Shown piece after piece: positions 19,106-39,504 of a stretch of DNA of 64,000 nt. Every line of letters begins with the position of its first letter. The first letter of the stretch is position 1. The translations under genes and the position numbers were made by a program. The notes beneath the pieces are model-generated. The model did no database searches. It was not told where the DNA came from and saw only the letters and a list, made by a program, of their open reading frames with translations. This DNA comes from a virus (Duplodnaviria > Heunggongvirae > Uroviricota > Caudoviricetes), in IMG/VR virus record IMGVR_UViG_2563366960_000002, one strand, 5' to 3'.

Positions 19106-19496
19106 TGTTGTGCCTCCCCGTTCCCTAATACACAGACGGGGACACTCTGCGGTCGATTTTTTGACGGGGGACGACTCATACCCCGTGGCGTCTGGCTTCT
19201 TAGGCCGCTACCATCATCAGATCATCGTTTGCATTTACTTTAATGGTCAGTTTCTAAACCGCCGCAAAGTCGCTAACCATGACGAAAACCCTGAAAAAAA
19301 CGCCCACCCGAAGATGGGCAAACTGGAAGCTCGTAACGCACTTCGGTGTTGCCACTTAGGCGTATGGTCAACCTGGCAACTCGGCGTCATGATGGGGAAG
19401 GAGTCACTACCCCGCCATACTTGCCGCCGCGCCTGTCGCGGCTAACAGCTAAATCGCTCTATAAATCACGATTCATTGATGCGATATTACACTAAT

Positions 19497-19513
19497 AAAT
19501 TTATTAGAGCAAT
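19497..19513 (-). promoter_or_regulatory. C1-type operator, perfect 17/17 ATTGCTCTAATAAATTT, overlapping the last codons and stop of dmt
   Basis: Direct read; -35-like TTGCTC inside, TAATAT 17 bp downstream on minus strand; a degenerate inverted site follows at 19451..19469. Confidence 0.7.
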
Positions 19514-34499: not shown

Positions 34500-35009
34500 A
34501 TGGGGCACAATAACACTAAGGGAAACCGTAAATTTATTAAGGGCCGCTATACTGCCAACGCGGCCAAAGGCGAACGACTGGTATCTTCTGAATTCCAGCT
34601 CACTTTTGCAGGCCATGAAGATATCAGCGTACTGGTTCGCACGTCGCAAATCCCTGAAATGACCCGCGAGGATGTGGAGGACTATGGTCCGAATGGTGTG
34701 AAGTTCAACCAGCACGGTCCAATTCGAAACTCTGGGGAAATCCAGGTCCAGTGCGTGGAGACTATCGAAGGCGATATTCTTCAGTTCATTAAAGATCGCA
34801 TTGCGGCGAAGGACTATGTTGATATCACGATGGCTGCTACCCCTGAATCCAAATCTTCCGGGGTTAACGCTGTGACAAAAGCTGCTACAACAATTGAAAT
34901 GTTGGACTGCAAAATCTACAGTGATGCAATCGACTTTAGTACCGAAGATGTGACTGCTGCTGTGCGTCCGTCACTTCGTATTGTCTACAACTGGATTGAG
35001 TGGGATTAA
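34500..35009 (+). CDS. hypothetical tail-module protein (tube-sized)
   Basis: 169-aa ORF. Confidence 0.45.
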   Translation: MGHNNTKGNRKFIKGRYTANAAKGERLVSSEFQLTFAGHEDISVLVRTSQIPEMTREDVEDYGPNGVKFNQHGPIRNSGEIQVQCVETIEGDILQFIKDRIAAKDYVDITMAATPESKSSGVNAVTKAATTIEMLDCKIYSDAIDFSTEDVTAAVRPSLRIVYNWIEWD

Positions 35010-35028
35010 GAGTCATCACTTGTATTTT

Positions 35029-35053
35029 AAAGCTCCTACGGGAGCTTTTTTTT
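35029..35053 (+). terminator. intrinsic terminator AAAGCTCC-TACG-GGAGCTTT plus T8
   Basis: Direct read after stop at 35009. Confidence 0.7.
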
Positions 35054-35180
35054 ATAACTATTTTATATAAAAATGCATTGATAACATTGTCTGGAGTTTT
35101 ATGTTAGATTATTAATGTTCTAATAAACTACAATTATTGAGGTAGAGGTTTGTGCCTGTCTGTTAAAGGGGGACTCTAAA

Positions 35181-35777
35181 ATGGCTGTGATTCCAATGTC
35201 GTACTCCCCGGGTACTGTCGCTCGTCGATTTTCGATCCTGGACGGAGTTACCATCCAGGGTGTGCTTTACCAGGTTATATGGGATTCCAAAACCCCATTT
35301 GCAGCTGTAATAGAGGCTGCGCCTTCTGTTATCGATGGTGATATGCGGCATAAGGTTGTCGCTACTCTTGAACTTCAACGTCGCCCGCAGCTTGAAGGTG
35401 TACTGGTAAGGAGGTTCTGGGAGGATAGTGATGTTGCCCAAATTGAAGGTATCGTGGTTGATGGAACCGTCCGTGATGTCGGTTTAGCTACTTTTGTTTA
35501 CGAAACCGTAGCCTCAAAAGCTGGTGTTGTTTTGCTTAGTGATAATGAGCAATACGAAGGTGGAAAAGCTCTTTGGCAACACATCGCCCGTCGCTCTTCC
35601 GAGCTAAAAGTGTTTATCCTCGACACCGATGCCGCTCAGTATTACCCGTTTGACGGCGAACGTGTTTGCTATGACGGGGTAAGTATTCCTGAATCTGAGA
35701 TATGGAGTGAACACCCAGATCGAAGTAAGCATGGGGTTGTTCTTGTCGCTGAATCCATAACTGGAAAGGCGGCATAG
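35181..35777 (+). CDS. hypothetical protein
   Basis: 198-aa ORF with AT-rich promoter-like leader and AAAGGGGGA RBS. Confidence 0.5.
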   Translation: MAVIPMSYSPGTVARRFSILDGVTIQGVLYQVIWDSKTPFAAVIEAAPSVIDGDMRHKVVATLELQRRPQLEGVLVRRFWEDSDVAQIEGIVVDGTVRDVGLATFVYETVASKAGVVLLSDNEQYEGGKALWQHIARRSSELKVFILDTDAAQYYPFDGERVCYDGVSIPESEIWSEHPDRSKHGVVLVAESITGKAA

Positions 35778-36066
35778 CAGTAAAATTCCTTGCTCCTTAA
35801 AAGGGGAGAGGGTTAATCTAGATATGCTAAGCATGGATATGGCCTCAGATTAATGTTAAGCGTCTTGCAGGACGCGTAATGTTATCTGGGGCTTTCTTCT
35901 GTTATTTGTTTGAGTGCTAGGTAGCAAAGAGAGCTAGCATTCATCAGGCAAATCTATCAATAAATAGCGTTAGTTTTTGTTGTGTGTATGTTTCTTTATT
36001 GTTATTGTGTTGTTTGTTTTTTGGACAACGCAATTCCTATAATCTATAGAATAAAGGAAGTATATA

Positions 36067-36353
36067 TGGCTGATGTACGCATTACTTGCATTACCCTCTC
36101 CGGCTCGCAATCAATCCATGAGCATATTACTCATGTGGGAAGTCCTCAATTTAATACTAGCAATGGGAAATGGACTGTTGAGCAGGTAATTAATGCTATT
36201 GATAATAATCTCCATACATTCTATGTAACAGATAATGCAGGTAATCGTGTAGAAGTTGGGGTTGTTAATCCTGGTAATGGTGGAAGGCAGTTTATTAGAA
36301 CGTATGCAGACAATCGATGGAATAATAATTTACTATCGCTACCAGTCTGTTAA
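36067..36353 (+). CDS. small hypothetical protein, low-GC moron
   Basis: Start set at ATG 36067 after AGGAAG RBS; AT-rich coding; strong terminator follows. Confidence 0.5.
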
Positions 36354-36364
36354 TGTAATTTTAT

Positions 36365-36398
36365 AAAAAAGGCTGCAACCTCTGTTGCAGCCTTTTTT
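36365..36398. terminator. bidirectional intrinsic terminator (A6-GGCTGCAAC-N4-GTTGCAGCC-T7)
   Basis: Direct read between convergent genes. Confidence 0.75.
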
Positions 36399-36423
36399 TA
36401 GCTATTATGACTGAGATAAGCCA

Positions 36424-37479
36424 CTATAAACTCTGAACAAGACGTTCGATTGCTGCACCATATCTTTCTAATGGTTCATTATTGATTTGTGGCTCAGTGT
36501 CATGGATCTGATATCTGCCTGGTTTTATATCAAATAGAGGTCTTCCTAGATGGGAAGATACTATAGCTACGGAATGGTTATCTGGCACAGTAAACGTTTT
36601 TAAATTTCCGCCTTGGAACGCTGTTGGTTTATTCGTCCGCAGATTTTCAGCTCTATCCCTGATTTCGTCGAACATTGCCGAAAACGCTTTACTTGCTCGT
36701 TTGTCATACTCTGTCGAACGATTAAAAACTAGAGAATGAATGACAGGAACCGCTAGACCAAACTGTTGACACCGATCGTAAAAGTTAACAGAACGATAAT
36801 CGTTTTGTACTCCAACGCCATAAACCAACTGGCTTAGGTTATCCACTGCTCGAGCCGAAGAACCATCACTTGAGCAAGGTATTATAATTGCATTTGCTGC
36901 TATCAGTGATAGTTCGGTATAGGCAGAGAAACTGGGGTTGCAATCAATAAAGCAAATGGTTTCTTCGATACCTTGTTGTTGTGCACATGCAACAAGCAAA
37001 TCTCGTAGCCACAGGTGGATGCTTTTCCATGAGTCAACTGGTAAGTTTACGCTGCTTAACTGATTGATTACTTGCGCCTGAACTTCCAGGCTTGGGTCGC
37101 CTGCAATCAAAAATACATTGTCAGGGACATGCCCGTTAATTTCAGAGACATGAATTAAGAAACTTGTTTCTGAACCGGTAAGCATGTGGGGGCTGCGAGT
37201 TCTTCTGTCAAAGTACCCACCGACAGTTTTTCGTTGTTGAATTAAGCTCGCGAGGTTAGCAGCACCAGTACCGTTACCACCGAGCAATATTTCAGATAAG
37301 TTAGCCTGCGGACACATATCTGCAAAAATAATACGCTTTTCTGGATTTTGCCTTGCGTATTCACAGGCCATAGCGAAAGATAAGTAGGTCTTTCCTACGC
37401 CACCTTTATTATTCCAAATAGCATACGATTTCATGGTATCCCCGGCGTTATCTGCTGTTTGTGTGCCAGCATAAGTCAT
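36424..37479 (-). CDS. orphan ParA/MinD-family ATPase (not part of the partition locus)
   Basis: Deviant Walker A NNKGGVGKT, A' IIFADMCPQAN, Walker B ICFIDCNPS; alternative start ATG 37434 (MKSYAIW) is plausible; no ParB-like partner adjacent. Confidence 0.6.
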   Translation of the reverse strand: MTYAGTQTADNAGDTMKSYAIWNNKGGVGKTYLSFAMACEYARQNPEKRIIFADMCPQANLSEILLGGNGTGAANLASLIQQRKTVGGYFDRRTRSPHMLTGSETSFLIHVSEINGHVPDNVFLIAGDPSLEVQAQVINQLSSVNLPVDSWKSIHLWLRDLLVACAQQQGIEETICFIDCNPSFSAYTELSLIAANAIIIPCSSDGSSARAVDNLSQLVYGVGVQNDYRSVNFYDRCQQFGLAVPVIHSLVFNRSTEYDKRASKAFSAMFDEIRDRAENLRTNKPTAFQGGNLKTFTVPDNHSVAIVSSHLGRPLFDIKPGRYQIHDTEPQINNEPLERYGAAIERLVQSL

Positions 37480-37722
37480 TATGCATCTCCATTACTATCC
37501 ATGAATTGAGTCAAAAAATATGTAAAAGTAGCAATGTATCACTCTTTTACTCATTATAAACGTTACAAGTTGTGATGGTTAGCTGTGTTTTTATCAGTAC
37601 AAGTTTTGATCTGGCTTTGGGTTTTTATATATGGATATGTCTCAAAGATGCCCTGCAAAAGCGATCGCTAACTGTAAAAAATCAGATTGCATCTCCGACC
37701 TCAAACTGAAAACGCCAGGTGA

Positions 37723-37739
37723 CTCCAGATTAGAGCAAT
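37723..37739 (-). promoter_or_regulatory. partial C1-type operator (ATTGCTCTAATCTGGAG on minus strand; first 11 positions match)
   Basis: Direct read just after repL stop and upstream of the ParA-like gene. Confidence 0.35.
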
Positions 37740-37742
37740 CTA

Positions 37743-38588
37743 TCACCCTCTGAATCCTGCCGGTATACCCCATTGTTCGTTATCTTTATTTTTGGCTAAA
37801 ACCGCATTAAGAGCTTTGTTTACCGTCATGCAATGCGGCAGATTATCGAAGTTTGATATCCCGCAAATATCAGGAGAACGCTTGTTCTTCAGGTAAGCAT
37901 ATTTCCGCGCTGCCGCCTCTACTTTCTGCTTGAACTCATGTTTTTGAGCGCGTTTTTTGGATAACCGCAGATTGTCAGCCTTTGCTTTTGCCTCAGCGAT
38001 CCATGAAGTCAATTTTTTGAGTCTGGTCGTTCCGGCACCGCCGGAAACTGATCTTTTTGTTTTTTTAACTTGTGACTTCTTATTCTTTATTGCCACGTCA
38101 TCCTGACAGGGGGAGGGGGTATCATTTTGACATGGGGGTGTGGATAAAAAATCAAATAAAGCCAATGTATTAGCGAGAACAGCTTTAACCTTGGTTGCGG
38201 CTGAAGAGATCTTTAATTTGCTTTCAATCAGCGCGTTTTTAGCGTGTTGTGCGAAGGCCAAAAAGGATGGTGTAAACCGGTACAGGTTAGCGCGGCGTTC
38301 ACGGTGATCGCCGATAACAATCTCTACAGACAGGATTCCTTTGTTTACAGCTTCACGGAATGCACGAACGACGGTTGATTGACTATAACCAGTTTCTGCC
38401 GCGATCAGGCGGTGAGGCTTGTGAATGAAGTATTCACTGGTTGTTGCCGCGAGATTTGCACATTGCGACAGGATATGCCCGGCGCTACGGGATAGACCGG
38501 AGTGTGTTACAAAGCAGGCCAATTCATAGCCAGAAAAAGTAAAATCGCTCATCGTTATACAGCTCAGGAAAGTGACTTTAGCCAGCAT
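37743..38588 (-). CDS. repL: lytic replication protein RepL-like
   Basis: 281-aa ORF after kilA under an operator-bearing promoter; HTH-like AAETGYSQSTVVRAFREAVNKGILS; size matches P1 RepL as recalled. Confidence 0.6.
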   Translation of the reverse strand: MLAKVTFLSCITMSDFTFSGYELACFVTHSGLSRSAGHILSQCANLAATTSEYFIHKPHRLIAAETGYSQSTVVRAFREAVNKGILSVEIVIGDHRERRANLYRFTPSFLAFAQHAKNALIESKLKISSAATKVKAVLANTLALFDFLSTPPCQNDTPSPCQDDVAIKNKKSQVKKTKRSVSGGAGTTRLKKLTSWIAEAKAKADNLRLSKKRAQKHEFKQKVEAAARKYAYLKNKRSPDICGISNFDNLPHCMTVNKALNAVLAKNKDNEQWGIPAGFRG

Positions 38589-39487: not shown

Positions 39488-39504
39488 AAATTTATTAGAG
39501 CAAA
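39488..39504 (-). promoter_or_regulatory. C1-type operator (TTTGCTCTAATAAATTT on minus strand), 16/17, upstream of kilA-repL
   Basis: Direct read. Confidence 0.65.

Follow-up and report, generated by a model that had tools for sequence, protein, structure and literature searches.

A divergent GiPD474-family ParA-like ATPase in a variable region of a P1-type phage-plasmid: a candidate single-gene anti-phage factor

Organization of the locus

The DNA analysed here (below, the window) is the 64,000-nt stretch of the IMG/VR virus record IMGVR_UViG_2563366960_000002 (Caudoviricetes). P1-type phage-plasmids match the region of interest at 95–99% identity. The subject of this work is a gene in the interval between repL and bplB that codes for an ATPase of the ParA/MinD fold; judged by its sequence, this ATPase belongs to the GiPD474 family as a distant member, being homologous over its full length to a protein that fits the published description of GiPD474. 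The gene and the features surrounding it are as follows:

34500–35009, plus strand: bplB, the left neighbour of the interval
35901..37642, both strands: cargo cassette of 1742 bp, made up of the ParA-like gene, its upstream region, the DUF3892 gene and the terminator common to both genes
36066..36353, plus strand: DUF3892 gene, 95 aa (Pfam E-value 1.7e-15; phrog_8224)
36365..36398, both strands: bidirectional intrinsic terminator, a perfect 15-bp stem with A and T runs on either side, common to the two convergent genes
36424..37479, minus strand: ParA/MinD-fold ATPase, 351 aa (from the open reading frame (ORF), motifs and fold)
37480..37642, minus strand: upstream region of the ParA-like gene, carried by the cassette (read from the sequence and by repeat search)
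37723..37739, minus strand: counterpart of the P1 operator Op55/Orlf, part of the backbone and not of the cassette
37743–38588, minus strand: repL, the right neighbour of the interval

The protein matches the Pfam families AAA_31 (E-value 5.9e-15) and CbiA, and it has the three-dimensional fold of ParA/MinD proteins. The deviant Walker A motif KGGVGKT occupies residues 25–31, with the signature lysine at position 25. In 18 homologues there is no variation at K25, G26, G27, V28, G29 and K30, nor at Asp54 of the A′/switch-I motif (within ‘ADMCPQAN’) or Asp179 of Walker B (within ‘FIDCNPS’). The initial annotation, which described a second ParA-family ATPase with intact Walker A, A′ and B motifs, is therefore upheld. 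No nuclease, protease or membrane effector domain is carried by the protein. Since most homologues begin at the equivalent of M16 (position 37434), the true start of the gene may be 37434.

A small gene had been placed at 36067..36353, convergent with the ATPase gene; its convergence and its end are as described, whereas its start is at 36066. This DUF3892 gene has a −10 box (TATAAT, 36038–36043) and a Shine-Dalgarno sequence (AAGGAAG, 36054–36060). The strong bidirectional terminator proposed between the two genes folds with −23.6 and −22.4 kcal/mol on the two strands (z ∼ −6; 0 of 200 shuffled sequences were as good), in agreement with the proposal; a consensus terminator scan missed this stem.

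Upstream of the ParA-like gene we found a perfect −10 box (TATAAT, 37558–37553) with a weak −35 sequence (TAACCA). A consensus promoter scan detected no sigma-70 site in this upstream region, and the promoter is therefore a putative one. Two 13-nt direct repeats, 34 bp apart on the plus strand, are situated at 37564–37576 (TACAAGTTGTGAT) and 37598–37610 (TACAAGTTTTGAT); they overlap and lie upstream of the putative −10 box and could represent either a site for a regulator or a coincidence. An Rfam search (E ≤ 0.1) of positions 34900–38000 returned terminator look-alikes and a sub-threshold sok match only. An RNA partner of the gene, suggested by long gene-free gaps upstream of some homologues, was considered and rejected: the gaps are not conserved.

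A partial C1-type operator had been noted just upstream of the gene. The sequence ATTGCTCTAAT at 37739–37729 (minus strand), 3 bp past the repL stop codon, matches the consensus in the first 11 of 17 bases and is the counterpart of P1 Op55/Orlf. It was missed by a C1-operator search with up to three mismatches that found nine other sites in the window, where 0.46 would be expected by chance. These sites are at positions 3055, 5146, 5195, 8819, 19486, 19497, 23019, 39488 and 41171; among them are an overlapping pair (19486–19513) and the counterpart of Op53 (39488–39504) upstream of kilA.

The borders of the cassette were defined by comparison with the backbone of phage vB_EcoM-673R5: homology ends at 35900 and restarts at 37643, and the 1742 bp in between take the place of 252 bp of vB_EcoM-673R5. 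The GC content is 0.393 in the cassette versus 0.475 in the window, so that the low-GC islet of the initial annotation is borne out. DNA homology to P1 ends at 37729, inside Op55; the Pfam content differs from that of P1, and no homology to RlfA (DUF3800) or RlfB was detected. The ends of the cassette in the window bear neither inverted repeats nor a target duplication, and we assume that it entered by recombination.

The complete cassette is present in 38 of 5426 complete Escherichia coli genomes, in each case on a plasmid and never on the chromosome; one more copy is truncated. The region described in the initial annotation is covered to at least 80% in 40 of the 545 matching PLSDB plasmids (∼7%). 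No record of the phage collection searched contained the cassette.

Relationship to GiPD474 and distribution of the family

GiPD474 (STM474_RS13505/STM474_2742) was described by Bosma, Noireaux and Bowden (Appl Environ Microbiol 2025; PMC12724215) as the product of a lone gene within the immunity region of prophages Gifsy-1 (S. Typhimurium 4/74) and Gifsy-3 (14028s). The gipd474 gene is 1086 bp long and encodes an AAA_31 protein with a ParA/MinD/Soj-like fold and the GGVGKT motif at residues 29–34. On deletion of gipd474, phage Felix O1 regained plating; when GiPD474 was expressed from a low-copy plasmid in E. coli K-12 or LT2, T4 and Alf5 plated ∼5 logs less efficiently and plating of FO1 was strongly reduced as well, while T7, SP6, LPST153, Jbel, VpaE1 and S16 were insensitive (PMC12724215). 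According to the same report, expression is constitutively high and the protein probably acts after adsorption by a mechanism as yet unknown. The window protein and its clade are not listed in the supplements of that report.

A search with a Klebsiella phage protein recovered a protein cluster, P0250, of 361 aa encoded by a 1086-bp gene, with GGVGKT located exactly at residues 29–34. The P0250 gene is situated just after a CI-type repressor gene, with a divergent Cro-like gene, and members of the cluster come from S. Typhimurium and E. coli. Because four descriptors (length, motif position, context and hosts) agree, P0250 was equated with GiPD474 or with a relative at least 90% identical to it. 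The window protein is 36% identical to P0250 over 342 of its 351 residues (BLASTP E-value 7e-78), and a profile-profile alignment of the two clades extends from end to end (hhalign probability 100%, E-value 1.8e-83, 335 columns).

The window protein and GiPD474 share a length of ∼350 aa, the ParA/MinD fold, the KGGVGKT motif, the AAA_31 assignment and the insertions by which they differ from canonical ParA. Both are solitary, partnerless and borne by temperate phages, and the cI-adjacent slot is also where the closest relatives of the window protein are located. The two proteins differ in belonging to separate clades, with DMCPQAN, PCSSDGSSARA and PDNHSVAIV in the window protein versus DACPQSN, PCTADAASIRG and KDGNTLAAI in GiPD474. 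The window gene resides in the variable repL–bplB region of a plasmid prophage rather than in an immunity region. Its clade extends far beyond Enterobacteriaceae, to many phyla and to archaea, and the anti-phage phenotype is known for GiPD474 alone.

From the canonical type I ParA, Soj, McdA and MinD proteins the window protein is set apart by the lack of a ParB-, MinE- or McdB-type partner gene and of a centromere, by the lack of an N-terminal helix-turn-helix domain and of a C-terminal membrane helix, and by ∼95 extra residues, mostly in insertions; similarity to canonical ParA/Soj is limited to E-values of 1e-3 to 1e-8. DIP2308 of Corynebacterium diphtheriae (361 aa; PDB 3pg5), an uncharacterised ParA-like protein, aligns in sequence with the window protein over the N-terminal 200 residues only.

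Thousands of proteins of ∼335 aa were found in the search for homologues. Identity to the window protein is 55–100% among the best 120, whose sources include Proteobacteria, Desulfovibrionia, Acidobacteriota and Patescibacteria; a pattern scan with one genome per species found members in 345 species, archaeal metagenome-assembled genomes (MAGs) included. Clustering of 1319 ORFs from 84 loci revealed no conserved protein neighbour, and the neighbour families that recur across these loci are transposases (IS1595, IS1 and Transposase_31) and HTH_3 only. Among 140 direct neighbours, the Pfam families observed more than twice were the IS1595 transposase (7), the IS1 transposase (4) and HTH_3 (3), the remaining direct neighbours being mostly singletons, many of them housekeeping genes. 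The ATPase is a member of a large, sporadically distributed family of solitary genes.

Several family members are located behind the repressor gene of a temperate phage. The copy in a Serratia lambdoid prophage (85% identical) is 123 bp downstream of a CI-type repressor gene in the same orientation, the copy in Pseudomonas phage phi297 (71% identical) is directly downstream of cI, also in the same orientation, and more distant members (∼35% identical) are found behind cI in Klebsiella phage ST11-VIM1phi8.2 and Salmonella phage S.Inf 5-2. The slot behind cI implies expression in the lysogen. In phage lambda this slot is occupied by rexAB and is the classic place for exclusion genes that protect the lysogen. 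The likeness to rexAB consists in the location directly downstream of cI and in co-transcription with it; there is no kinship in sequence or fold, and one gene is present instead of two.

One member of the family is also carried by an insertion sequence (IS). A 2272-bp element of the IS1595 family carrying a ParA-like gene (L087 7883–10154, L088 and L089) occurs in three copies in one genome, Vicinamibacterales MAG OZ250139.1. The element has 23-bp terminal inverted repeats, and the 8-bp target duplications of the three copies differ from each other (ATCGGAAA, CAAATGAT and ATATATAA). In all copies of the element the ParA-like ORF is frameshifted near residue 95, a sign of either a genuine pseudogene or an error of long-read assembly; six other IS1595-linked ParA-like copies are intact. 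A search for terminal inverted repeats around the ParA-like and transposase genes gave nothing convincing in four of these IS1595-linked loci, and the status of IS passenger hence depends on one element. In four alphaproteobacterial loci, the IS1595 transposase and the ParA-like gene are accompanied by a protein of ∼145 aa that received no Pfam assignment (L035 9032–9460, L038 9251–9703, L049 7458–7895 and L060 3900–4334); it may be a second passenger.

The repL–bplB site and its cargo

In P1 the interval between repL and bplB is made up of the operator Op55/Orlf, rlfA, rlfB and pmgF. The slot equivalent to window positions 35901–37642 holds rlfA (NC_005856.1, 6241–6945; DUF3800) and rlfB (6945–7409; 154 aa). 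In the relative MH422554 the sole occupant of the interval is a hok/mok gene, in phages SJ46 and 673R5 the interval contains other small ORFs, and in RCS47 it contains a transposase of the IS605 family. Two surveys of P1-like elements counted rlfA-rlfB-pmgF among eight regions of low GC content and high variability, and one of them described a plasmid with three orfs replacing rlfA-rlfB-pmgF between repL and bplB (PMC9603915, PMC6906374). Occupancy of the junction between repL and the tail gene, which the initial annotation had suggested comparing among related phage-plasmids, is thus variable, with unrelated cargo in P1 and most relatives.

The P1 slot and that of the window are alike in lying downstream of repL and Op55 and in carrying low-GC accessory cargo. 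The proteins are unrelated, and rlfAB is a co-oriented two-gene operon. P1 RlfA and RlfB match both components of PDC-M04, a candidate defence system of PADLOC (E-values 1e-95 and 1e-51, respectively); the name ‘replication-linked function’ is probably misleading for this pair. Given these matches, the repL–bplB slot appears to swap cargo of defence or addiction type rather than replication functions, and the junction looks like a hotspot of defence cargo.

Two more features belong to the same variable region and lie outside the cassette:

35181..35777, plus strand: ORF of 198 aa (phrog_7522)
35807..35900, minus strand: 94-bp remnant of a hok/mok/sok leader, abutting the left border of the cassette

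The 198-aa ORF, located at the position of pmgF, is common to 673R5 and SJ46 and absent from P1; its match to GNAT is marginal (E-value 0.063). The leader/sok part of the remnant is 87–95% identical to mok/sok regions of prophages, and the hok ORF has been lost, as judged by alignment to MH422554, whose mokW locus is intact. With the Rfam sok model the remnant scores 24 bits, short of the gathering score of 59; even so, it might give rise to an orphan Sok-like antisense RNA.

As to the convergent gene of the cassette, tblastn searches found DUF3892 in none of 87 other loci with the ParA-like gene and the ParA-like gene in none of nine DUF3892 loci. Because the two genes do not co-occur outside P1-like plasmids, we judge the DUF3892 gene to be a second, independent cargo gene and not the partner of the ATPase. 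In the literature DUF3892 has been tied to defence operons under regulators of CapH/CapP type, a link that we count in favour of a defence role for the locus.

Homologues of the DUF3892 gene were seen in two other settings. In E. coli (L015–L019, ∼6001–6288) a 73%-identical homologue is located at the edge of what appears to be a capsid-forming satellite, with genes for AlpA, a D5_N primase, SSB, a major capsid protein and a head decoration protein, apparently inserted beside a truncated lambdoid capsid gene. In Salmonella islands (L020–L023, 6001–7360) the DUF3892 gene is directly upstream of a co-oriented gene with an FRG domain; the two may form a two-gene unit near genes for a DEAD/ResIII helicase and TrbL.

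Function of the ATPase and alternative explanations

We consider it probable (at about 0.6) that the ATPase acts as a lysogen-expressed single-gene factor of anti-phage defence or superinfection immunity of the GiPD474 kind. In favour of this assignment are the homology to GiPD474 with its published phenotype, the cI-adjacent niche of the clade, the solitary organization of the gene, its location in a hotspot of cargo and defence genes and the ties of DUF3892 to defence operons. The fold, the catalytic motifs, the full-length homology and the solitary organization are properties of the window protein itself, and the niches occupied by its relatives imply expression in lysogens; for a clade 36% identical to P0250 we infer the same anti-phage phenotype, as well as every step of the mechanism given next. 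The initial annotation had offered, as one option, the NTPase of an uncharacterised defence module. Defence is indeed the best supported of the options, through homology to GiPD474; the ATPase, however, would stand alone, as DUF3892 is not its partner.

We propose the following course of events. A self-contained unit of promoter, gene and terminator would have been gained by recombination into the variable rlfA-rlfB-pmgF region and would be transcribed from its own promoter during the plasmid-prophage state. The protein would work as a nucleotide switch of ParA type, with the signature lysine sandwiching ATP between two subunits. The ATP-dependent dimer would then bind either a specific component of the invader or a host structure needed by the phage, after adsorption. 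Since the protein carries no effector domain, protection would have to stem from ATP-dependent dimerisation and binding as such. The narrow, phage-specific range of GiPD474 argues for recognition of one phage-encoded protein.

Several observations weigh against a defence function. The identity to the GiPD474-like P0250 is just 36%, and function could differ at this distance; P0250 itself is probably GiPD474 or a close relative, as judged by length, motif position, context and host. Members of the window clade, found from E. coli plasmids to Acidobacteriota, Patescibacteria and archaea, remain 55–60% identical across phyla, which is above the conservation usual for defence proteins. Many chromosomal copies are solitary among housekeeping genes, outside defence islands, and the association with defence islands is weak in general, with a handful of PADLOC matches among the direct neighbours. 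In the window the gene is not beside the immunity repressor but at the repL–bplB variable region, and its putative promoter amounts to a match to the −10 box only. A ParA-like protein with no effector also has no obvious way of stopping a phage, GiPD474 included.

Database models for defence genes added little. PADLOC-DB v2 (2023) gave no match at E ≤ 0.1 for the ParA-like protein, the DUF3892 protein or the 198-aa ORF, and PADLOC, NCBIfam and PHROGs returned for these three proteins generic ParA labels or nothing. The GiPD474-like P0250 has no PADLOC match either. As the 2023 library has no model for the family, the null result is uninformative, and it lends the defence assignment no support.

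Among the other explanations, some weight, about a third of that placed on defence, goes to a non-defence benefit to mobile elements, the gene travelling as a passenger on IS elements, prophages and phage-plasmids. Taken together, this would cover a helper of nucleoid tethering or target selection in transposition or maintenance, a manipulator of ParA/MinD processes of the host and an anti-defence factor. A transposase of IS1595, IS1 or YhgA type directly adjoins the gene in ∼19% of the loci, the triplicated IS1595-type element with its inverted repeats and target duplications bears the gene, and the very high conservation across phyla suggests a universal target such as DNA. Most copies, however, have no transposase nearby, and three unrelated transposase families suit a passenger better than a dedicated partnership. 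Moreover, the copies in the triplicated element are frameshifted, and the anti-phage phenotype of the homologue was demonstrated in a host without the cognate element. That the ParA-like and DUF3892 genes form a two-gene system, for instance of sensor and effector or of toxin and antidote, is improbable: while both entered P1-like plasmids in one cassette with a shared terminator, and DUF3892 has its links to defence operons, the genes converge and have separate −10 boxes, they fail to co-occur in the 87 and nine other loci, and DUF3892 keeps different company elsewhere (the FRG-domain gene and the satellite-like element).

A role in partition is slightly less credible still. The ATPase could serve as a second partition or incompatibility ATPase that uses the resident ParB–parS or a host partner, or it could disturb the partition of competitor plasmids; in favour of this are the ParA fold, the intact ATPase motifs and the suggestion of the phi297 authors, who described an orphan parA lacking parB and speculated about plasmid maintenance in a plasmid prophage state (PMC3564109). 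The window, however, has its true partition genes elsewhere, parA at 27250–28461 and parB at 28458–29423, 7–10 kb from the ParA-like gene and distinct from it, as stated in the initial annotation. The likeness of the ParA-like protein to the resident ParA is confined to the surroundings of Walker A (BLASTP E-value 0.003). In place of the DNA-binding arginine motif of Soj, which we take to be PRNVRL, the window protein has PDNHSV, as judged by eye and not by alignment. No ParB-like ORF flanks the gene, the flanks being the convergent DUF3892 gene and repL only, and positions 35780–37760 contain no repeat array, just two-copy repeats of 12–18 nt at chance level; both the missing partner and the missing centromere-like repeats had been reported before. 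Homologues are not restricted to segregating replicons: integrated prophages, chromosomes and sites inside or beside insertion sequences are homes that need no partition, and the gene is present in just ∼7% of matching P1-like plasmids. The earlier verdict that this is not a partition system is in line with all of these observations, and nothing in the sequence speaks for interference with the partition of competitors. Least probable of all is an accessory role in lytic replication, with the gene standing in for rlfA/rlfB downstream of repL, an option raised in the initial annotation and not sustained here. Position is what speaks for it, the gene being co-oriented with and downstream of kilA-repL, behind the counterpart of Op55. 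The protein has no homology to RlfA or RlfB, themselves resembling a candidate defence system, the family occurs outside any RepL context, and other P1-type phages are functional with this site empty or filled with unrelated genes. As P1 and most relatives lack the gene, it is not the conserved P1 gene at this position, the case that the initial annotation had named as counting against its own reading.

Beyond the window, the defence assignment can be extended into a more speculative proposal, to which we give no more credence than to a non-defence benefit: the GiPD474 family could represent a pan-prokaryotic, effector-less class of immune proteins, in which a bare switch of ParA type binds, sequesters or mis-positions a component of the invader. 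Such a protein may have spread as a minimal one-gene unit, also as a passenger of IS1595 and IS1, and may act with neither degradation nor cell killing.

The gene does not represent a conserved P1 function, nor is it of an uncharacterised kind: its family was first described in November 2025, and its site is a known variable region. The breadth of the family, its association with IS elements and its presence in a phage-plasmid exceed the published record. The GiPD474 report was limited to prophages of Enterobacteriaceae (PMC12724215), and with the present data the family also takes in a phage-plasmid, Pseudomonas phage phi297, IS passengers and members from many phyla, archaea included. Clinical and livestock E. 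coli commonly harbour P1-like phage-plasmids, which already act as movers of resistance genes. If the ‘replication-linked’ slot, with occupants such as the PDC-M04-like rlfAB, hok/sok and the GiPD474-like gene with DUF3892, is a swap site for defence cargo, the annotation of the region would change. For comparative work on how ParA-like proteins with no effector block phages, the clade of the window protein provides a second, divergent clade.

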